This document shows, in pieces, positions 19,563 to 29,085 of a stretch of DNA of 32,000 nt. The stretch's first letter is position 1; each line of letters begins with the position of its first letter. The DNA lies in the NCBI RefSeq assembly GCF_000022265.1, contig NC_011979.1:4020001-4052000 (forward strand). Direction: 5' to 3'. A program made the translations under genes and the position numbers. The DNA is from Geotalea daltonii FRC-32. Its GTDB lineage: Bacteria; Desulfobacterota; Desulfuromonadia; Geobacterales; Geobacteraceae. A model generated the notes under the pieces. The model did no database searches. It worked only from the letters and a program-made list of their open reading frames with translations, and had not been told where the DNA came from.

Positions 19563-20990
19563 TTATATTGGCAAACTTAAACTGGCACGCAAGCCTTTAT
19601 CCGGCAGATTGTCAAGCTGGATGCCACCCCCGTGAAGAATGGCGACTTCTCTCACGAAGTTGAGGCCCAGGCCAGTGCTCTTCTTGCCGGTGTCGGGGCG
19701 TTGCAGGGAAAAGAACCTATTGAATATCTTATCCCTGCAATACTCGGGAATTCCGGGGCCCTCATCATCGACCACAATAACAAGAGCTCCTTCAGCAACA
19801 GTTGCGGTTATCGCAATGGTTCCCCCTGAGGGGCTGAAATCAATGGCGTTCTGAACTATATTGGAAACAGCCTGGTGAAGTAGAAACAGATCCCCTGGTA
19901 CGCTGGCACCCTCATCCACATGAAATGCAATTTGCAGCCCCTTGCGTGACAGGATAGGACCCTTGCTTTCCAGCACAGCGGTGAGAAGCCCATTAAGACA
20001 AACGGGCTCCACATTTTGCAGGGTCTTTCTTGCCTCAAGTTCGGACAGCTTAAGCATGCGGTCCACCAGGTCCTGGATCCGGTTGGCCTCGGTACGGATG
20101 TTGGAAAGGAACAGCTGCCGCTTCTCCGTCGGCATCTGCTCATCCAGAAGTTCCGCCGCTCCTTTGATGGCAGAAAGAGGACTCTTTATTTCATGGGTAA
20201 GGGTCTGGACGTACCGTTCCACATATTTTTTCCCTTCCAGGGCCTCACGCATATCTTCCAGAGCCAGGCCCATATCCCGCAATTCCGTGCGCCCCAACGG
20301 GGGAAGCCTCGGCCTTTTCCCATCGCGGATCTTATTGGCATACCTGGTGAGTCTTTTGATGGGATGGGTCAGCCACAAAGATACGACAAAAGAAAGGGCA
20401 ATAGCCGACGCCGCTGCAAGGTACCAGAGCTTGAGGATTCTGGGTCTTTCGCTGTTGACAAAGGCATTGATGTTGGTGGTCGGTTTGGCCACCGTCACTA
20501 CTCCTGCATTTTTCCCATGAATGATGATAGGTGCTGCAACAAACAGTATGGACGTCCTGGGGTCCTTAGGATCCAGGCGAGTAGTCCTTGTGCCGTATTC
20601 CCCTTTCAGTGTCAGGGAAACGTCCCGCCACCTGGAGTAATCCGCGCCGACGTTCTTGGGTTCCAGTGAATCGAAGATCACTTTTCCCGAAGGGTCGGTG
20701 ATGTATATGCGAAGGTCCACACGCTTCTTCTGGAATCCATAAATGCGCGCTGTAAGGGAGCGGGAATAGGCGTGATCAAAAGCCTTGTACAGATCCTGCG
20801 GATTAAAGCGTCCGGTCTCCATCTGCGTTCCCACCATGGCCGCCAGCAGCGTGGCGTGGTCCGCAAGGGGATCTTCCACGCTTTCCAGAAAAAATGTCCT
20901 CAGGTCCTTGAAGAATTGGCTGGCCGGGTATGAAAAGCAGATGACTGAGATAAGGAGGTAGGCGAGAAAAATCCGTGCTGCCAGCTTCAT
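19563..20990 (-). CDS. Sensor histidine kinase, CreC-like
   Basis: 475-aa ORF with two TM helices bracketing a sensor domain of about 170 aa. It has an H-box (THEIKSPLSAIKGAAELL) and HATPase N/G boxes (NAIDFSP..., DEGPGIP, GLGLNFV). The sensor segment ADYSRWRDVSLTLKGEYGTRTT and the region around the H-box closely resemble E. coli CreC as I recall it. The start overlaps the response-regulator stop by 4 nt (ATGA). Confidence 0.85.
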   Translation of the reverse strand: MKLAARIFLAYLLISVICFSYPASQFFKDLRTFFLESVEDPLADHATLLAAMVGTQMETGRFNPQDLYKAFDHAYSRSLTARIYGFQKKRVDLRIYITDPSGKVIFDSLEPKNVGADYSRWRDVSLTLKGEYGTRTTRLDPKDPRTSILFVAAPIIIHGKNAGVVTVAKPTTNINAFVNSERPRILKLWYLAAASAIALSFVVSLWLTHPIKRLTRYANKIRDGKRPRLPPLGRTELRDMGLALEDMREALEGKKYVERYVQTLTHEIKSPLSAIKGAAELLDEQMPTEKRQLFLSNIRTEANRIQDLVDRMLKLSELEARKTLQNVEPVCLNGLLTAVLESKGPILSRKGLQIAFHVDEGASVPGDLFLLHQAVSNIVQNAIDFSPSGGTIAITATVAEGALVIVVDDEGPGIPEYCRDKIFNRFFSLQRPDTGKKSTGLGLNFVREVAILHGGGIQLDNLPDKGLRASLSLPI

Positions 20991-21712: not shown

Positions 21713-23083
21713 TCAGCTTGCTCTTTTCTCTTTTGTTTCCCTGATTATGTCAATCTTTTTCTTCAGCAGGTTGAGGACAAGCCAGCCCAGAAAAATACAG
21801 AGGGTTGCAACCAGCACGAAAACCGAGTGTTCCAGATACCGCGGCCCATATCGGTGGAGGGAGCCGTTCAGCAGGGGCATGAAGACGGAGATTGCAAGGT
21901 ACCAGGCGAAGGGAGCAAATACGACATTGGAAACGGACTGAATTTCTGAGGCTATCGCGGTCTCGGCAGCGGAAGATTTTTTACGGCAAAGGCGGCCGAC
22001 CATCCGTTCCGCCGCCAGATAGGTGATTACCAGGATCGGCACATATATCAGCATCCCCGCCAGCCTGTGGACCCGTTCCGGTGTGGCCCATTCGCCATAG
22101 ATGTCTGCCCGGTACAAATAGATGGAGATCATAATCCTGAAACTGTTGCCCAAGAGTGTCACCAGATAGGCCGAAATAATGCTGATGACAAGCCAGGCCC
22201 ATTTCTTCATTGGGTTGTCCAATCGGGAAACGAGGGTAAAGAAGATGGTGGCAAAACAGATAATGAAAAAATTAACTCCCGCACAGGCCGGGGCAATGAC
22301 GACGCGGCTGGCAAGGCTGACAAAACCGACGGCAGGATCGTACTGGAACTGGATGCCGGTGATGAGCTCCACCAAAAAGGCAAGGGGTTGCAGAACCCAG
22401 ACCAGATCGTCTACTCCTGCTGTGCTGTAAAAGCCCTTGAGGGACAAAATCACTATCATGCCCAACCCATACAAAGGGAGGTTCTTCCTCGTTACCCCTT
22501 TGTCCGTCCGCCGCCGTCTGTTTCTTTGCCAGTTCCGCCAACACGACAGTACCCGCTTCACTGGCCCCTTGCCGAAACAGTTGACCATAAAGGAGAGAAA
22601 AACGATCCGGCTGTCGAGGAAGAGGCTGTAGGAGCCTGCATACCTGTCGTCAAAAAATCTGCTGACGCTTCGCCCTTTGCCGGCAAAGAGTTGCGCCAGC
22701 CCCGTCATGCCGGGTTTGCACCGCCAGCGGCCCAAGGCGGGATCCTGCCAGTCAAGGCGCGTCACATCCTCCATAGTCATCGGACGAGGCCCGACCATGG
22801 ACATGGAGCCCCCGAGGACATTGAAAAACTGCAACAGTTCGTCAAGCCCTGTTGCCCGGATCCATCCCCCGACCCTCGTCACCCGTCCTTCCCGCATGCT
22901 TCGAAACTTGTAGATGCGAAACATGCGCATTTCTTTTCCAAGCCTCTCCTGCACAAAAAGAACCGGTCCTCCATCTTCGAGAAGAATCAGCAGGGTAACA
23001 ACGAAAAAGACAGGGAGAAAGACAACCAGGCCAATGGATGCAGCGACCATGTCAAAGATGCGTTTTATGGGATTCTGTTTCAT
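21713..23083 (-). CDS. Fusion protein: small PglC-like polyprenyl-phosphate sugar phosphotransferase (aa ~1-175) plus an exosortase/archaeosortase-family polytopic domain (aa ~200-445)
   Basis: The N-terminal half carries Bac_transf hallmarks. These are a re-entrant helix with Pro (LVVFLPVFFVVTLLILL), GGPVLF.QER.G, FRIYKFRSM, the GLDELLQFFNVL Asp-Glu dyad, MVGPRP and KPGMTGLAQ. A highly basic linker (WRNWQRNRRRRTDKGVTRK) follows, then about 7 TM helices. These carry the three exosortase signature residues in order and context: APAC267AG (22283-22285), GNSFR316I (22136-22138) and RVH339RLAG (22067-22069). Called by motif, with no HMM run. The start overlaps the upstream radical SAM stop (ATGA). 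Confidence 0.75.
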   Translation of the reverse strand: MKQNPIKRIFDMVAASIGLVVFLPVFFVVTLLILLEDGGPVLFVQERLGKEMRMFRIYKFRSMREGRVTRVGGWIRATGLDELLQFFNVLGGSMSMVGPRPMTMEDVTRLDWQDPALGRWRCKPGMTGLAQLFAGKGRSVSRFFDDRYAGSYSLFLDSRIVFLSFMVNCFGKGPVKRVLSCWRNWQRNRRRRTDKGVTRKNLPLYGLGMIVILSLKGFYSTAGVDDLVWVLQPLAFLVELITGIQFQYDPAVGFVSLASRVVIAPACAGVNFFIICFATIFFTLVSRLDNPMKKWAWLVISIISAYLVTLLGNSFRIMISIYLYRADIYGEWATPERVHRLAGMLIYVPILVITYLAAERMVGRLCRKKSSAAETAIASEIQSVSNVVFAPFAWYLAISVFMPLLNGSLHRYGPRYLEHSVFVLVATLCIFLGWLVLNLLKKKIDIIRETKEKRAS

Positions 23084-24501
23084 GACGCCGGCGTAACCTC
23101 CGTTTCTTTTAGACCAGGCCGGATCCCGACCTCCTGCTCCTCCCGCTGCGCAGTCAGCAGAACCGACTCCAGAACTCCCCTCATTGAAATCAAGCCTTTA
23201 AACTTGATCATTGCATTCCAAAGGGGTTCAAAGCGCTTCCACCCTCCCGCGTACATAAGATGCCGCACACGGTTCGGAAACAGCGAATGGGCGCTGCTTG
23301 CCTTAAGGATGGAGCCCCACCGGTAAAACTCCCGGTAAGCAAGGTCATACCCTGCTTTCAATTGGTCTGCCGTCATTCCCTTGGGCTGGTAAACCACATG
23401 ACGGGTATCATACAAGTCCCAGTCACTGCTCTGGATGCGCCCATCACCATCGAGGGTCCGAAACAGCGCCGTACCGGGATATGGTGTCAGAATATGAAAT
23501 GTTGCCGTGGTGATACCCCGCTCAATGGCCCAGGATGCGGTACGCCTGAATATATCCGGGCCGTCGCTGTCCAGGCCGAAGACGAAGCTGCCGTTGATGA
23601 AAACACCCAGGTCATCCAGGCGGCGGATCACTCGATCGTAGTCCCGTCCCAGGTTCTGTCGTTTGTTGCTCGCCTGGAGATTCCGGGGATCGATGGATTC
23701 GAAACCAATAAAAATACTTCGAAGTCCTGCCTCCACGGCTCTTTCGATCAGGTCGCCTTCAAGGATGGAATCGACCGTCGCCGCCCCCTGAAAGAGTCTA
23801 TTCATGCCGCGCATGCCATCGAACAGATTTGCGGCGAAGTGCCGGTCCCCCAGCAGATGATCGTCCAGAAAATAGAGATGACGTCCCGGGAGGCTCTCAA
23901 TTTCAGCGAGCGCTGCATCGACGCGTTGGGTATAGAAAGAGGCGCCACCCTGAAAAAAACTATCCTTATAGCAGAAATTGCAGTGATGGGGACAGCCGCG
24001 GGAGACGACCAGGGAGTTAGGCACCAGATATAGTTCCCACTTGATCAGATCGCGGCGTGGGGGTGGCACACCCATGAGGGAACGGTTCGGAGAAAAATAA
24101 ACAAGTCTTGGTTCTCTCCGCCGGAAATCTGCAAGGAAAGCGGGAAACGTATCTTCACCAGGCCCGAGAAAAATGGCGTCGGCATGAAGTTTTGCCTCTT
24201 CAGGCAAAGAAGTTACATGCAGACCTCCCATAGCCACGAAAACGCCCTTTGACCGGTAATGATCGGCAATCATGTATGAGCGGCGGGCGCTTGTAACATA
24301 GGCTTGAATCACCACCAAATCGGGATGATCGCTGGTATCAAGTTCTTCCACATGTTCATCGACAAGCTCAACTTCATCGTCCGGCGACAGAAAAGCGGCA
24401 AGGGTTGCAAGTCCAAGGGGTGGAAACAATGAATACTTTATGGGACGCCAGAATGGACTTTTTGCCTCTATCAAGGCGGGCAAAATCATTTTCACTTTCA
24501 T
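23080..24501 (-). CDS. B12-binding-domain radical SAM protein (class B rSAM, DUF4070-like C-terminus)
   Basis: 473-aa ORF. The N-terminal cobalamin-binding-like domain reads ILPAL...FPPLGLATLAAFL...DLVVIQAYVTSA...VAMGGLHVT. The CxxxCxxC motif is SRGC170PHHC174NFC177YKD (23971-23994). An AAGGAGA RBS lies 5 nt upstream of the ATG. Confidence 0.88.
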   Translation of the reverse strand: MKVKMILPALIEAKSPFWRPIKYSLFPPLGLATLAAFLSPDDEVELVDEHVEELDTSDHPDLVVIQAYVTSARRSYMIADHYRSKGVFVAMGGLHVTSLPEEAKLHADAIFLGPGEDTFPAFLADFRRREPRLVYFSPNRSLMGVPPPRRDLIKWELYLVPNSLVVSRGCPHHCNFCYKDSFFQGGASFYTQRVDAALAEIESLPGRHLYFLDDHLLGDRHFAANLFDGMRGMNRLFQGAATVDSILEGDLIERAVEAGLRSIFIGFESIDPRNLQASNKRQNLGRDYDRVIRRLDDLGVFINGSFVFGLDSDGPDIFRRTASWAIERGITTATFHILTPYPGTALFRTLDGDGRIQSSDWDLYDTRHVVYQPKGMTADQLKAGYDLAYREFYRWGSILKASSAHSLFPNRVRHLMYAGGWKRFEPLWNAMIKFKGLISMRGVLESVLLTAQREEQEVGIRPGLKETEVTPAS

Positions 24502-24590
24502 ACGGTCTCCTTGGTATTGATCCGATAACTGCCGGTTCTGCTCTGGGCAAGGAGGGAACCTTCAAGGCTCCCTCACGCTCTTAATCGGCT

Positions 24591-26588
24591 TTACTTGATC
24601 ACCTTTCCCTGTCGCCGGTATCGTTCAAGCCCGAGGAGCGCGGCAGCCACGACAATGAACAGCACCGTGAGGCCGGGTTCCGGCACGGAGGTGCATCCCA
24701 CGGCCAGATTGGAAACACCTGCGGGAAGTGGCAATGGCTGGTCCACATTATCCGCTGCGCCTTCTTTGTTTCGAACCTCTTCAAGAACGGCAATGAATGA
24801 TGTATACGGAGTGAGCAGGTTGTAGTCGAGCCCGAGATTCGTTACCTCTCTCCTGGTGTCAGAATTTTCCCCCTGGACATTGTAATTCGACAGTCTTGCG
24901 ATACGAGAACGGGCCCAGAGGTATTTCAGGGGGGCATGGTCTGAAAGGGGTTTGGTTTCTTTGACGTAAAAAGTTCGGGTATATTTGCCTGCTGCGGTTT
25001 TACCGGTAAGCTCAATTTCGCCGATCGGTTTGCCGCGCCACTTGCCGTACAAAACCAGGGGGCGCTGGGCAAAGAGATCGGGAATGGTCGCCGGTTCCAC
25101 ATTGTAGGCCTCAAATTCTTTGAATTTGACATGAACGCCGGTCAACAGGGGGGACGCCACATACTTGCGGAAGCGATCCGAGGCTTCCTTCGCCTCTTCC
25201 GGCTTCGTTACCACGAAGGACTCCCCTTGGCCCGCCTGGGCAATACCGTCCACCAGGTAGCGATTGATGCTCGACCCGATACCGAAGGAGAAGACATTGG
25301 TGGTATCCAGATTTTCGGAAATCAGCTTGAAACTCTCCCGTTCCGCACTGATAAAGCCGTCGGTGATGATAACCGCCGTACGGGCTTTACCCTTTTCCCG
25401 CGGCAGGGACAGGGCTTTATTCAGGGCGGCAGCTAGCTCAGTTCCGCCTCCTCCCTGCTGGGAATCGATGAGTCTGATCGCTTTCGTGATATTTTCACTG
25501 GTTGCAGGAATGGACGAAGGATCCATGACCTGTGAGCCGCCGGCAAAAAGGACCAGGTTGAACGTGTCAGTGGGACGGAGGTTGCCGATCAGGTCCCGGA
25601 TCAGAGTCTTCGCCGTATCGAGGGGAAAGCCGTGCATGGAACCGGAAACATCCAGGACAAAGATGTATTCCCGAGGCAGGATCTCAGCCGCCTGCACCTT
25701 TTCCGGAGGCTGGACCATAAGAAGAAAGAAGTTCTCCTTCTCCCCTTGATAAAGCATGAGCCCGCTCTGAATCTCCTTGCCGGCAAGGCGGTATTTGAGG
25801 ATGAAGTCCCGATTGGCCGCAAACCCTCCCGATTTCACAAGAGCCGCAGTGACCATAGATTTGTCCAACCATGACAGATCCACCTTGTGGGAAGGACTGA
25901 CCACTTCCTGGATCGGTATCGAGGTGGAGAGAAAGACATTGATGTTAAAAGCAGTAGCCGGAGTTTTCCCCTCCTTGAGATAGGGTGATTTTACCCATTT
26001 GTCGCGCTCTGGAGCGTCCGCCTCTTTCTGATTGGAATACCTGGGTCCGACAACGGTAGGGTAGACGAATTCATAGGTTCCATCCGTCGGCACCAGGAGC
26101 TCGGCATAGTGTAGCTCGATCTGCACCTCATCCCGGGGCATGATGTTTGCGAGGCTCATGGAGAAAACATTCGGCCGTTGCTCCTCCAGGAGCGAGGCGC
26201 TCTTTCCTTCGGCCTTGGCCTTGACGAATTCGGCTTTGGCGGCCTCTTTCTCCTTGATTCGGGCTGTAACGACACGTTTGCCAACCGTCATCTTCATGCC
26301 ATGAACGGAAGCCCTAGTTGAGGCGGGGAAACAGTATCGGGCGTTAATGGGCCGAGTGCCGTTGTTGACATACTTCTGCGTAACGGTGACATCGGCGATG
26401 ACGCCGTTGATGGTGACCTTGACGTCGGTATTCTTCAACGGAAGCCGGTCAACGGCAGGGTCACCATGCTCGATGAAGAAGTAGGGGGAAAGGGTTTTAT
26501 CGCCCCCGTTTTCACTGGAGGCATGGGCAGGCATCTGCGGGATAAGTGAACTGATTAAACAAACTAGGGCAAGCAACTTCGTCTTCAT
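24591..26588 (-). CDS. Secreted VIT-domain plus von Willebrand factor A protein with a C-terminal PEP-CTERM sorting signal
   Basis: I chose the start MKTKLLALVCLISSLIPQMPAHASS (ATG 26586-26588) because it gives a clear signal peptide and AAGGAGG lies 6 nt upstream. The track's 55-aa N-terminal extension is low-complexity and crosses the promoter region. The VIT-like block is LPLKNTDVKVTINGVIADVTVTQKYVN...YCFP....SVHGMKM.VG.R...A.IKEKEAAK. The VWA domain has a MIDAS motif (IFVLDVSGSM). The C-terminus is SVPEPGLTVLFIVVAAALLGLERYRRQGKVIK. Confidence 0.88.
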   Translation of the reverse strand: MKTKLLALVCLISSLIPQMPAHASSENGGDKTLSPYFFIEHGDPAVDRLPLKNTDVKVTINGVIADVTVTQKYVNNGTRPINARYCFPASTRASVHGMKMTVGKRVVTARIKEKEAAKAEFVKAKAEGKSASLLEEQRPNVFSMSLANIMPRDEVQIELHYAELLVPTDGTYEFVYPTVVGPRYSNQKEADAPERDKWVKSPYLKEGKTPATAFNINVFLSTSIPIQEVVSPSHKVDLSWLDKSMVTAALVKSGGFAANRDFILKYRLAGKEIQSGLMLYQGEKENFFLLMVQPPEKVQAAEILPREYIFVLDVSGSMHGFPLDTAKTLIRDLIGNLRPTDTFNLVLFAGGSQVMDPSSIPATSENITKAIRLIDSQQGGGGTELAAALNKALSLPREKGKARTAVIITDGFISAERESFKLISENLDTTNVFSFGIGSSINRYLVDGIAQAGQGESFVVTKPEEAKEASDRFRKYVASPLLTGVHVKFKEFEAYNVEPATIPDLFAQRPLVLYGKWRGKPIGEIELTGKTAAGKYTRTFYVKETKPLSDHAPLKYLWARSRIARLSNYNVQGENSDTRREVTNLGLDYNLLTPYTSFIAVLEEVRNKEGAADNVDQPLPLPAGVSNLAVGCTSVPEPGLTVLFIVVAAALLGLERYRRQGKVIK
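24594..24686 (-). other. PEP-CTERM sorting signal (VPEP, hydrophobic helix, Arg-rich tail) at the C-terminus of the VIT/VWA protein
   Basis: The encoded sequence is VPEP-GLTVLFIVVAAALLGL-ERYRRQGKVIK-stop. This is the tripartite architecture of the PEP-CTERM domain recognised by exosortases. Confidence 0.8.
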
Positions 26589-26652
26589 GGTAAACCTCCT
26601 TGTATTGCAGGTTGCCGTAACTTCCGGCTCATTGTTGAGTCGAATGTACACG

Positions 26653-26696
26653 ATGAAATTGAAGTGAATTTGAAGTGGGGATGAAAAAAGTGTGAA
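26653..26696 (-). promoter_or_regulatory. Phased TTCA(C/T/A) direct-repeat array (cre-tag-like) upstream of the VIT/VWA gene
   Basis: Minus strand reads TTCAC-ACTTTT-TTCAT-CCCCAC-TTCAA-A-TTCAC-TTCAA-T-TTCAT. Four pentamers start exactly 11 bp apart, and two more form a second 11-bp register offset by 6 bp. The first pair matches TTCACnnnnnnTTCAC at 9 of 10 positions. The array ends 64 nt upstream of the ATG. Confidence 0.45.
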
Positions 26697-26710
26697 AAAA
26701 GGGGAGGACA

Positions 26711-26742
26711 AATAAAAAGGCCGTGGAAAAAATTCCACGGCC
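26711..26742 (-). terminator. Rho-independent terminator after the short-type asd
   Basis: Minus strand reads GGCCGTGGAA-TTTT-TTCCACGGCC, a 10-bp perfect stem, followed by TTTTTATTT. It starts about 25 nt after the asd stop. Confidence 0.85.
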
Positions 26743-26767
26743 TTGTCAGACATTAATGTTGCTTGAA

Positions 26768-27787
26768 CTATTTAAGGTACTTCTCGATGAGAATCTCCGC
26801 AATCTGCACCGCATTGGTGGCCGCCCCTTTGCGGATATTGTCCGCTACCACCCACAGGTTCAGGCCATTTTCGATAGATTCATCCTTGCGAATCCGCCCG
26901 ACCTGGACAAAATCCTGCCCGGCTGCATCAACAGGCATGGGATATATACCTTCTGCAACGTCATCAACCAGCTCACAGCCCGGTGCCGCAGCGATCAGCT
27001 CCATGGCCGTCGCAACAGAAATCTCCTTCGCTGTCTCAATATTGATCGATTCGGAGTGGCCGAAGAAAACGGGAATCCGCACCGCAGTCGCAGTAACCTT
27101 GATGTCGGCTTCCATTATCTTGCGCGTTTCATTGACCATCTTCATCTCTTCCTTGGTGTAACCGTTATCGCAGAAGGAATCGATCTGGGGCAGACAGTTG
27201 AAGGCAATCTGATGGGGGTAAACTTCGGTGTTGGCAGGACGGCCATTGAGAAGCTCTCCCACTTGGACACGCAGTTCTTCAATGGCTTTCTTGCCGGTAC
27301 CGGAAACGGCCTGATAGGTGGAAACGACGATGCGCTTGATCTGGGCATGGTCATGGAGGGGTTTGAGAGCTACCACCATCTGGATGGTGGAACAGTTGGG
27401 ATTGGCGATAATCCCTTTCTTCTTGTACCCGGCAATGGCGTGGGCATTCACCTCCGGCACCACCAGAGGCACATCCGCGTCCATGCGCCAGGCGCTTGAA
27501 TTATCGATGCAGATTGCCCCGGCTTTGGCAGCAGAGGGGCAAAACTCTTTGGAACGCTCCCCTCCTGCGGAAAAGAGCGCGATATCAATGCCGTCGAAAG
27601 AATCATGGGTCAATTCCTCCACCAGGACCGCCTTGCCCTTAAATTCCAGTATTTCTCCCGCACTGCGGCTGCTGGCCAGATATTTTATCTTCCCTACCGG
27701 GAAATCACGCTCCTCAAGACACTCGATCATCTGGGCGCCAACCGCGCCGGTGGCGCCGACAATGGCTATATTCCATTTTTTACTCAT
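26768..27787 (-). CDS. asd: Aspartate-semialdehyde dehydrogenase, short (Gram-positive / Vibrio Asd2-like) class
   Basis: 339 aa from ATG 27785-27787 (MSKKWNIAIVGATGAVG...). The track's start at 27793 is a TTG only 3 nt from the GGGGAG RBS. The active-site Cys context (IIANPNCSTIQ) and the His context (PVFFGHSESI) are both retained. Confidence 0.9.
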   Translation of the reverse strand: MSKKWNIAIVGATGAVGAQMIECLEERDFPVGKIKYLASSRSAGEILEFKGKAVLVEELTHDSFDGIDIALFSAGGERSKEFCPSAAKAGAICIDNSSAWRMDADVPLVVPEVNAHAIAGYKKKGIIANPNCSTIQMVVALKPLHDHAQIKRIVVSTYQAVSGTGKKAIEELRVQVGELLNGRPANTEVYPHQIAFNCLPQIDSFCDNGYTKEEMKMVNETRKIMEADIKVTATAVRIPVFFGHSESINIETAKEISVATAMELIAAAPGCELVDDVAEGIYPMPVDAAGQDFVQVGRIRKDESIENGLNLWVVADNIRKGAATNAVQIAEILIEKYLK

Positions 27788-27812
27788 TACCAATATCTCC
27801 CCTTAAATACGT

Positions 27813-27984: not shown

Positions 27985-29085
27985 TTATTTCTCGAGGAGT
28001 ATGCGGAGCATTCTCCGCAACGGCTCCGCCGCCCCCCACAACAGCTGATCGCCACAAGTAAAGGCCGACAGGTATTGGGGGCCCATCTTCATCTTCCGTA
28101 CCCGGCCGACCGGGACGGTCAGCGAACCGGACACCGCCGTCGGAGTCAGTCCGGTTAACGTCTCTGCCTTGGTATTGGGTACAAACTTTACCCACTGATT
28201 GTCATTCTTGATCAAGCTCTCGATGTCGGCAATGGGTATATCCTTATTCAGCTTTATGGTCAGGGCCTGGCTGTGGCAGCGCATGGCGCCGACCCGCACA
28301 CAGATGCCATCTACAGGGATCGGCGAAGAGGTGCCGAGGATCTTGTTGGTCTCGGCATAACCTTTCCACTCCTCACGGCTTTGCCCGTCTTCCACCTCCC
28401 GGTCGATCCAGGGAAGAACGCTTCCGGCCAGAGGAAAGCCGAACTCCTTGGTGGGCAAGGAGCCATCCCGCAGGGTGGTGGTCACCTTGCGGTCGATCTC
28501 CAGGATTGCAGAAGCAGGGTTTTTCAGTTCCTCGGCAACCACGCCGTGGAGAACCCCCATCTGGCTTAACAGCTCACGCATATTGGGAGCGCCTGCACCA
28601 CTTGCCGCCTGATAGGTCATGGAGGTGAGCCACTCCACCAGACCTGCCCGAAACAACCCGCCAAGCCCCATGAGCATCAGGCTGACGGTGCAGTTGCCGC
28701 CGATGAAATCCTTCTGCCCTTTGGCCAGGGCGGCGTCTATGACGTTACGGTTTACCGGGTCGAGGATGATGACCGCATTGTCTTCCATACGCAGTGTGCT
28801 GGCGGCGTCTATCCAATAGCCCTGCCATCCCTGCTTGCGCAGCTCGGGGTGTACGGCCTTGGTGTAATCACCACCCTGGCAGGTGATGATAATATCGAGC
28901 TTTTTCAATTCCTCGATATCATCGGCCTTTTTCAGGGTTCCGGCATTCATGGGGGCAGGCTGACCGGCCTGTGAGGTGGTAAAAAATACCGGCTCGAAAC
29001 CGAAACTGAAATCTTTTTCCTCCTGCATCCGCTGCATGAGGACCGATCCAACCATACCGCGCCAACCGACAATTCCGACTTTCAT
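27985..29085 (-). CDS. asd: Aspartate-semialdehyde dehydrogenase, long (E. coli-type) class
   Basis: 366-aa ORF alignable along its whole length with E. coli Asd as I recall it. Matching blocks include [76 protein letters not shown] and [17 protein letters not shown]. Confidence 0.95.

Follow-up and report, generated by a model that had tools for sequence, protein, structure and literature searches.

In the XrtA/PEP-CTERM/EpsH system (PMC1569441), a tripartite C-terminal PEP tail, an exosortase, a two-component system (PrsK/PrsR) and a link to a polyprenyl-phosphate sugar transferase occur together, and the cargo proteins are many and scattered. Such elements are also found in the stretch of DNA analysed here (the window: 32,000 nucleotides of the chromosome of Geotalea (Geobacter) daltonii FRC-32), but there a single cargo lies in the neighbourhood, a CreBC-like pair takes the place of PrsK/PrsR, and the surroundings are housekeeping genes. 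The cargo is a protein with VIT and VWA domains and a PEP-type tail at its C-terminus. We consider it, with a probability of roughly 0.78, to be the dedicated cargo of a nearby exosortase K-type (XrtK-like) enzyme.

The window enzyme shares with exosortase K (TIGR04287/TIGR04178) the model score, the family signature and the conserved Cys, Arg and His, and differs from it by fusion to a phosphoglycosyl transferase and by its Desulfobacterota host. Exosortase K is, we presume, a stand-alone small protein with an MSEP-CTERM protein (TIGR04286) as neighbour and partner in Bacteroidota; the cargo of the window gave no match to TIGR04286 at E<=0.01. Archaeosortase A removes a tripartite C-terminal signal (PGF-CTERM), leaving the protein attached to lipid, and needs a conserved Cys and Arg. 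It belongs to a homologous enzyme family but is archaeal, recognises another motif, has many substrates and carries no fused transferase. On the side of the cargo, inter-alpha-trypsin inhibitor heavy chains (ITIH) and PARP4 share the VIT+VWA arrangement but come without PEP motif or exosortase, and their processing chemistry is unrelated. ITIH heavy chains are cleaved near the C-terminus and the new C-terminus is esterified to a glycan; the parallel with the cargo is conceptual only.

The class GN ('marine proteobacterial') sortase system likewise has one VIT+VWA target, which bears a tripartite C-terminal signal and is encoded beside its own Cys transpeptidase, and a two-component pair is commonly present, as in the XrtK cassette described below. 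However, that target ends in an LPQTAT tail and its enzyme has the sortase fold, whereas the window encodes a VPEP motif and a polytopic exosortase, an unrelated enzyme. Haft and Varghese (2011; PMC3237569, section 12, Fig. 3C) described vault-like VIT/VWA proteins with GlyGly-CTERM, LPXTG or PEP-CTERM tails, the corresponding enzymes being rhombosortase, a dedicated Gram-negative sortase and, in Verrucomicrobium spinosum, an exosortase. An earlier note, made from the letters of this DNA, had proposed that the passenger (the cargo protein up to its tail) was recruited recurrently by sorting systems; this is correct and was already published in that figure. The paper does not describe the pairing with XrtK, the CreBC-like pair, the radical-SAM and transferase inserts, or the fusions to receptors and TonB_C. 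GenBank calls the cargo 'putative exosortase substrate' and RefSeq calls the fusion protein 'exosortase K'. The cargo-enzyme pairing and the reuse of the passenger with other tails are thus already recorded, in the databases and in the 2011 paper. In the literature searched there was nothing relevant on exosortase K or MSEP-CTERM and nothing on an exosortase of G. daltonii; nor did we find there the four-gene XrtK cassette with a CreBC-like pair, the radical-SAM and transferase insertions of Geobacteraceae, the transferase-exosortase fusion, or the receptor-plug and TonB_C architectures of the nearest passenger relatives. The generalisation of the cassette, its insert variants, the fusion and the receptor architectures are an incremental advance over this record.

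Results

The cargo gene adjoins an XrtK-like gene in many hosts

The features at the centre of this report are the following (aa, amino acids; HMM, hidden Markov model).

24591..26588, minus strand: cargo precursor, 665 aa, ACM21991.1 / WP_012648717.1
24594..24686, minus strand: PEP-CTERM-like sorting tail of the cargo, aa 635-665 (borderline HMM scores, family-wide conservation)
21713..23083, minus strand: transferase-exosortase fusion protein, 456 aa
21713..22495, minus strand: exosortase K-type domain of the fusion protein, aa 197-456 (TIGR04287, TIGR04178, RefSeq name)

A profile scan for XrtK-like proteins in one genome per GTDB species gave 216 relatives, and the best 80 loci were used, with all their open reading frames (ORFs) scored against the six proteins of the window; the G. 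daltonii locus itself is not among them. Within these best 80 of 216, 65 loci reach far enough beyond the XrtK-like gene on its upstream side, and 63 of them have an intact VIT-VWA-PEP gene directly upstream of it. In the remaining two it was frameshifted in one case and 2.3 kb off in the other. Of the 63 loci, 47 continue directly downstream of the XrtK-like gene with CreB/CreC-like genes on the same strand, and four more have them nearby. The hosts are mostly Desulfobacterota, together with Binatia, several classes of Acidobacteriota, Myxococcota, Moduliflexus and Chitinispirillaceae. A detector for PEP-type tails picked out one other ORF in all flanks of the loci, and no further one elsewhere in the window. 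Look-ups that started from the cargo protein gave the same gene order at two loci (L001 and L003); at a third (L002) no exosortase was visible after the cargo, but a scaffold gap lies in that stretch, which makes it uninformative. Since the cargo adjoins the XrtK-like gene almost without exception and the pair so often follows, we read the locus as a putative one-enzyme, one-cargo cassette, and the strong comparative evidence supports this reading. A dedicated cargo in a one-enzyme, one-substrate relationship is what the earlier note had proposed from the window, and both the adjacency and the scarcity of other PEP-tail ORFs speak for it.

Two apparent fusions of cargo and exosortase were rejected. 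One, of 980 aa (L079), is spurious and stems from a stretch of N in the scaffold sequence. The other comes from a metagenome-assembled genome (MAG) of Geobacteraceae (P0014, locus L004, 6004-8451), where an 815-aa ORF holds the cargo tail helix in frame with the second half of the exosortase; the Cys-containing first half is missing, and the ORF reflects either a system-inactivating deletion or faulty assembly of the MAG. In the closest species-representative locus (L005, 10780-15600) a block of about 5 kb, encoding an AAA ATPase, an amidohydrolase-like protein, a small radical-SAM-like protein and others, stands as an unrelated insertion between exosortase and response regulator, and the intergenic spaces of the cassette seem prone to insertions. 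In an uncultured Geobacter genome a second, longer VIT-VWA paralogue lies a few kb from the cassette (L008, 3232-5607, minus strand); this type of paralogue (also P0044 and P0046) has about 770-790 aa and 769 bits and is without an obvious PEP tail.

The sorting tail and the fused enzyme

The tail is made up of VPEP (aa 635-638, nucleotides (nt) 24675-24686), the hydrophobic helix GLTVLFIVVAAALLGL and the basic RYRRQGK (aa 656-662), and the protein ends at aa 665. Among 68 cargo tails that adjoin XrtK-like genes, E-P is invariant (68/68), V occupies position -1 in 60 and P position 0 in 62. PEP is followed by [E/G][L/M], a hydrophobic segment some 17 residues long and a cluster of R/K, and preceded by a conserved QPLPLP..VSNLAVGG. 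The same type of tail ends nearly all of the 120 best cargo homologues and is conserved in about 190 orthologues overall. Because of this conservation across the family we judge the tail to be real, despite its borderline scores with generic HMMs.

The exosortase domain scores 133.3 and 136 bits with TIGR04287 (cutoff 55) and 40.9 and 42.4 bits with TIGR04178 (cutoff 23). Its conserved residues are C267 (nt 22283-22285), N313/R316 and H339/R340. The C, N, R and H columns do not vary across 21 diverse relatives, and the domain thus keeps an intact set of the putative catalytic Cys, Arg and His. No solved structure matched an XrtK-like protein. A stand-alone XrtK-like protein at L001 (12041-12880) matched positions 77-207 of the 920-residue model TIGR04286 weakly (E 4.5e-4), which may reflect a real relationship or merely a shared membrane-helix composition.

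The other half of the fusion protein is a transferase.

22511..23083, minus strand: PglC-like polyprenyl-phosphate phosphoglycosyl transferase half, aa 1-191 (PF02397)

It scores 148.4 bits with PF02397 (cutoff 27), matches the PglC structures 8E37/8G1N (E 1.5e-20) as well as WbaP structures (E 1e-20 or better), and is a weak match to TIGR03013. With its motifs YKFRSM (58), D81-E82 in GLDELL and VGPRP (97) and a hydrophobic segment at aa 8-45, it is predicted to be a small monotopic PglC-like phosphoglycosyl transferase. By hydropathy the transferase half has a single hydrophobic segment, at its N-terminus, and the exosortase half has six or more, which suggests a cytoplasmic transferase, then a basic linker, then at least six membrane segments. 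The second exosortase segment begins with the Cys, and this end of it is periplasmic if the N-terminus is cytoplasmic. On this hydropathy model the Cys would be level with the PEP motif of a periplasmic protein anchored by its tail.

The cargo is a predicted metal-dependent binding protein

The longest ORF of the cargo gene (24591..26753, minus strand) has 720 aa, while the correct start is the ATG at 26588, preceded by the Shine-Dalgarno site caAGGAGGtttaccATG. The extension is spurious, because the terminator of the upstream asd gene (26744-26717) falls inside it and the start at 26588 lies behind a good ribosome-binding site; GenBank and RefSeq annotate the same 665-aa product. The span 24591-26588, as given in the earlier note, is therefore exact. 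The parts of the cargo ahead of the tail are as follows.

26514..26588, minus strand: signal peptide, aa 1-25 (MKTKLLALVCLISSLIPQMPAHA, followed by SS), by inspection only
26106..26438, minus strand: VIT domain, aa 51-161 (PF08487, 122.6 bits, E 1e-35)
25185..25664, minus strand: VWA domain, aa 309-468 (PF13768/PF13519/PF00092)

The signal peptide, the VIT-like N-terminal domain and the VWA domain with an intact DVSGS motif, all named in the earlier note, were found again. For the signal peptide this was judged by eye and by inspection only: MKTK, a hydrophobic core and AHA before SS, with comparable N-termini in homologues. The metal-ion-dependent adhesion site (MIDAS) is complete, consisting of D313-x-S315-x-S317 (DVSGS, aa 313-317, nt 25638-25652) together with T383 and D410, and none of these five positions varies among the aligned relatives (75/75), sortase-type and receptor-fused ones included. 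The C-terminal passenger region ends in QPLPLPAGVSNLAVG, ahead of the PEP-type tail. Among solved structures the best matches to the cargo are PARP4 (E 2e-35), ITIH4 (3e-26) and ITIH1 (1e-14). From its sequence the cargo is thus predicted to be a secreted metal-dependent binding protein.

Relatives carry the passenger on sortase targets and TonB-dependent receptors

With TIGR03788, the model of the sortase targets, the cargo scores 425.9 bits over aa 53-629, that is, over all but the tail; the equivalog cutoff is 551.65. A true member encoded on a Rhizobium plasmid reaches 771.5 bits, has an LPQTAT tail and lies next to a class GN sortase (TIGR03784). Its identity to the cargo is 31% over aa 50-624, up to a PLPLP.G motif. 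No sortase is encoded in the window. The sortase-target family is thus a homologous but distant branch of the passenger. The earlier note had equated the passenger with the LPXTG sortase target; homology stood, and membership of the same family did not, given the score below cutoff and the low identity. The alignment that it had called for gave homologous passengers with different tails (LPQTAT and VPEP). Its suggested link to XrtN was not reproduced: TIGR03788 and generic VWA models matched, an XrtN-associated VIT family did not at E<=0.01 (the presence of the XrtN partner model in the library being unconfirmed), and the neighbouring enzyme is of XrtK type.

An exhaustive search of 1.84 billion cluster representatives returned 5,885 proteins at E<=1e-30, of which the 150 nearest (42-55% identity) were examined. 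They have the passenger in common up to about residue 632 and then diverge. Nineteen have PEP-type tails, at least 16 run on into SusC-type TonB-dependent receptors, at least 16 have a TonB_C domain, in some cases along with FKBP (P0308), and the rest have other barrel-like or unassigned extensions; 92 extensions are unlabelled. None of the 150 has an LPXTG tail. The relatives fused to receptors or TonB_C are 45-53% identical to the cargo. A protein on a plasmid of Pontibacter sp. G13 (WP_311587986.1, 1564 aa; L085, 6421-11115) shows 47% identity over aa 1-632 and then matches TIGR04056 with 486 bits; P0323 has the architecture CarbopepD_reg - VIT - VWA - Plug. WP_311587986.1 is annotated merely as a SusC/RagA receptor, and in it a complete VIT-VWA passenger replaces the usual N-terminal extension; many comparable proteins of 1500-1770 aa occur among the cluster representatives. 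Both the N-terminal extensions of TonB-dependent receptors and the C-terminal domains of TonB are periplasmic. As the fused passengers would sit in the periplasm, the conserved job of the passenger is more likely periplasm-facing than at the surface, which by analogy suggests a role other than that of a surface adhesin and speaks against a simple reading of the passenger as adhesin-like, one of the two options in the earlier note.

Operon layout and elaboration in Geobacteraceae

The cargo, radical-SAM and fusion proteins of the window are exact matches to ACM21991.1, ACM21990.1 and ACM21989.1 of the 4,304,501-bp chromosome. The order on the minus strand is asd, terminator, cargo, B12-radical-SAM gene, transferase-exosortase fusion, CreB-like gene and CreC-like gene.

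26717..26744, minus strand: intrinsic terminator of the upstream asd gene, 12-bp stem (7 GC pairs) then a T-run
24502..24590, minus strand: intergenic spacer of 89 nt with the Shine-Dalgarno site of the radical-SAM gene
23080..24501, minus strand: B12-binding radical-SAM enzyme, 473 aa, ACM21990.1
20987..21667, minus strand: CreB-like OmpR-family response regulator (NF008296)
19563..20990, minus strand: CreC-like sensor histidine kinase (NF008312)

Contrary to the earlier note, the enzyme is not adjacent to the cargo: the radical-SAM gene (23080-24501) intervenes, and the exosortase, being the C-terminal half of the fusion protein (21713-23083), is encoded two genes downstream. The stop of the radical-SAM gene overlaps the start of the fusion gene (ATGA), the gap from there to the CreB-like gene is 45 nt, and the start of the CreC-like kinase overlaps the stop of the CreB-like regulator. 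These overlaps and short gaps, together with the upstream terminator, lead us to regard the genes from cargo to CreC as an operon, whose 5' boundary is the asd terminator. A scan for promoters and terminators gave nothing above shuffled sequences except that terminator. Just past the cargo stop lies a G+C-rich hairpin of 10 bp without T-run (24545-24575, minus strand), which could set the expression ratio of cargo to enzyme; its fold z-score of -1.65 is not significant.

The radical-SAM enzyme scores 40.3 bits with PF02310 (cutoff 32.1) and 40.6 with PF04055 (cutoff 29.5), and CPHHCNFC is visible in its translation; by these domains and the CxxxCxxC motif it is predicted to be of class B (B12-binding) type, and it matched no characterised subfamily model at its cutoff. 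In the 80 species loci the cassette never includes a radical-SAM or transferase gene. Arrangements that do include one were found among metagenomic relatives of the window's radical-SAM enzyme with 75-89% identity. Two of them (L090, L093) have the order cargo, radical-SAM gene, XrtK, CreB, CreC, and in a third (L094) the contig ends after XrtK. A fourth (L087) has cargo, radical-SAM gene, transferase, XrtK, CreB and CreC; there transferase and exosortase are encoded separately, with 37 nt between the two genes. G. daltonii has the same six-gene set, but with transferase and exosortase fused in frame. In Geomonas sp. Red32 (L088, 10001-14236; also L089) the radical-SAM gene is followed by a small phosphoglycosyl transferase, CreB and CreC. 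The radical-SAM gene between cargo and exosortase is thus a clade-specific insert. Compared with L087, the fusion protein is 72% identical over the whole length of the transferase and 55% identical in the exosortase from residue 18 on, a pattern from which we conclude that the fusion arose by loss of a stop codon, the spacer and about 17 codons. Among 53 homologues the G. daltonii protein is the sole transferase-exosortase fusion.

The possibility that the radical-SAM enzyme is a modifier specific for the cargo was weakened by the distribution of its family, which occurs at 65-70% identity in Bacteroidota, Verrucomicrobiota and Thiofilum (Gammaproteobacteria) with unrelated neighbours, and in Geomonas without cargo or exosortase. 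Because the family is unusually well conserved, also in lineages where its neighbours are others, its substrate is probably not the cargo protein. The gene translationally coupled downstream of it varies with the lineage: in Geobacteraceae it encodes the phosphoglycosyl transferase, in Spirosoma a lipid kinase (DAGK_prokar) and in Thiofilum a peptidase M28. Since two of these three partners act on polyprenyl or lipid phosphates, the coupling hints at a lipid-related substrate.

The CreB-like regulator scores 316.9 bits with NF008296 (cutoff 273), and the CreC-like kinase 597.1 bits with NF008312 (cutoff 356) in a full-length alignment; the kinase has a periplasmic sensor region with a dCache-like match. 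Models of the two-component system that accompanies the sortase (TIGR03785, TIGR03787) are weaker on the pair (114 and 150 bits, cutoffs 612 and 336). From these models the pair is predicted to be of CreBC type and not of the sortase-system subfamily.

The genes around the operon are housekeeping ones (rpoBC, tuf, ribosomal proteins, argC, truA, two asd genes, leuB, RNase Z), and the cargo locus is not an exopolysaccharide island. Directly upstream of the operon, two different aspartate-semialdehyde dehydrogenase genes stand in tandem (26768-27793 and 27985-29085, both minus strand), one of asd_B type (TIGR01296, 480 bits) and the other of asd_gamma type (TIGR01745, 621 bits).

Discussion

The reading of the cassette that we favour is that the tail of the cargo is very probably cut off by the dedicated enzyme encoded two genes downstream. 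Sec would export the cargo, and its C-terminal helix would keep it anchored in the inner membrane, so that the VIT-VWA(MIDAS) body lies in the periplasm. There the XrtK domain would recognise V-P-E-P-[E/G] at the periplasmic end of the helix, and this Cys-dependent enzyme would remove the helix and the basic cluster. By analogy with sortases and archaeosortase, the new C-terminus would probably be passed to an acceptor in the envelope and not to water. The CreBC-like pair, the usual fourth member of the cassette, would most likely control it. We infer recognition, cleavage, transfer to an acceptor and control by the pair from family knowledge and synteny, with lower confidence than the pairing of cargo and enzyme; the same holds for the site of cleavage, for whether there is an acceptor and what it is, and for where the cargo finally resides.

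Several observations weigh against a dedicated pairing. Three excerpts of the tail reach 14.3, 15.0 and 16.1 bits with TIGR02595, whose cutoff is 16, and 9.2-10.5 bits with PF07589, whose cutoff is 20.7; the full-length cargo matched no PEP-CTERM model at E<=0.01. The earlier note had spoken of a textbook PEP-CTERM end at 24594-24686. Its coordinates and the order of VPEP, helix and RYRRQGK were right, whereas by the generic models, at or below their cutoffs, the tail is not a textbook one. The note had also held that its proposal would fail with a sub-threshold tail; the scores are at or below cutoff, yet the tail is clearly conserved, and the outcome is not decisive. By analogy with other Geobacter, which have XrtA, the cargo might possibly be cross-processed by another exosortase. 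The two-component pair is absent from about a quarter of the loci, notably those of Acidobacteriota. In Geomonas sp. Red32, an orthologous pair (69% and 72% identity) lies behind radical-SAM and transferase genes with neither cargo nor exosortase there, which shows that the link between pair and cargo is not a strict one.

Could the tail be a generic PEP-CTERM one, served by a housekeeping XrtA, while the XrtK-like enzyme works on other or many substrates? It does resemble the canonical signal (the TIGR02595 alignment spans positions 1-18 of 24), and related genomes carry XrtA with several PEP-CTERM proteins: G. sulfurreducens has XrtA and five such proteins, G. metallireducens ten and two EpsH genes (PMC1569441, PMC7726332). 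However, the adjacency of cargo and XrtK-like gene in 63 of 65 loci from several phyla, the virtual lack of other PEP-tail ORFs nearby, and the tail's own conserved extras (VSNLAVGG upstream, [E/G][L/M] after PEP) make this very unlikely, and a co-resident XrtA with many PEP-CTERM proteins would not undo the pairing that the neighbouring genes encode, so that this other refuting condition of the earlier note is not decisive either. That the tail is an uncleaved C-terminal membrane anchor, its PEP motif being conserved for another reason, would fit the sub-threshold scores of the generic models. It is hard to reconcile with an E-P that never varies in 68 tails while helix and basic cluster vary freely, with a Cys/Arg/His exosortase that is always next door, and with homologous passengers that bear other cleavable signals (LPQTAT with class GN sortase, GlyGly-CTERM; PMC3237569), and we regard it as extremely improbable.

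Two further readings concern what the cargo does. It may act at the cell surface or in the matrix, the processed protein lying beyond the outer membrane, attached to exopolysaccharide and adhering through its MIDAS in a metal-dependent way, in line with proposals for classical PEP-CTERM proteins. Adhesins often contain VWA/MIDAS domains, a phosphoglycosyl transferase lies next to the exosortase in L087 and is fused to it in the window, and PEP-CTERM systems are generally linked to exopolysaccharide loci (PMC1569441). Set against this, the closest passengers sit between CarbopepD_reg and a SusC-type receptor plug or before TonB_C, and most cassettes come without a glycosyl transferase; a surface adhesin is thus rather unlikely. 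Alternatively, the cassette would be a signalling and not a sorting module, in which the VIT-VWA protein, tethered or processed, serves the CreC-like kinase as co-sensor in the periplasm and cleavage by the exosortase is the switch. A two-component pair does accompany the XrtK cassette (47-51 of 63) and the class GN sortase system (TIGR03785, TIGR03787), and the CreC-like kinase has its dCache-like periplasmic sensor region. Yet about one cassette in four lacks the pair, Geomonas keeps an orthologous pair without the cargo, and plain transcriptional control explains the adjacency equally well, so that we think a signalling role quite unlikely.

If, as we favour, the cargo is sorted by its own XrtK-like enzyme, the transferase offers a candidate for the acceptor. 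Its fusion to the exosortase in G. daltonii, where the close relative L087 has the two as adjacent but separate genes, may be a Rosetta-stone link, on the strength of which the polyprenyl-diphosphate-linked sugar started by the transferase, perhaps altered by the radical-SAM enzyme, might serve as acceptor and leave the cargo linked to a glycan or glycolipid. We put this forward tentatively and think it unlikely. If it were true, the glycan-linked cargo would have its animal counterpart in the inter-alpha-trypsin inhibitor heavy chains, whose C-terminus is esterified to a glycan.

For work on the chemistry of exosortases and on the acceptor of their cargoes, one-enzyme, one-cargo cassettes are the cleanest place to look. 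The cassette described here occurs in at least 216 species representatives and has a single large cargo that can be tracked easily and an obvious regulator. The fused transferase, which would initiate a lipid-linked sugar, gives a concrete hypothesis for the acceptor in a genus that can be cultivated and is genetically approachable. The architectures in which the passenger is found (with receptor plug, TonB_C, sortase or rhombosortase) suggest one periplasm-facing job, variously tethered, and could guide work on VIT-VWA proteins.

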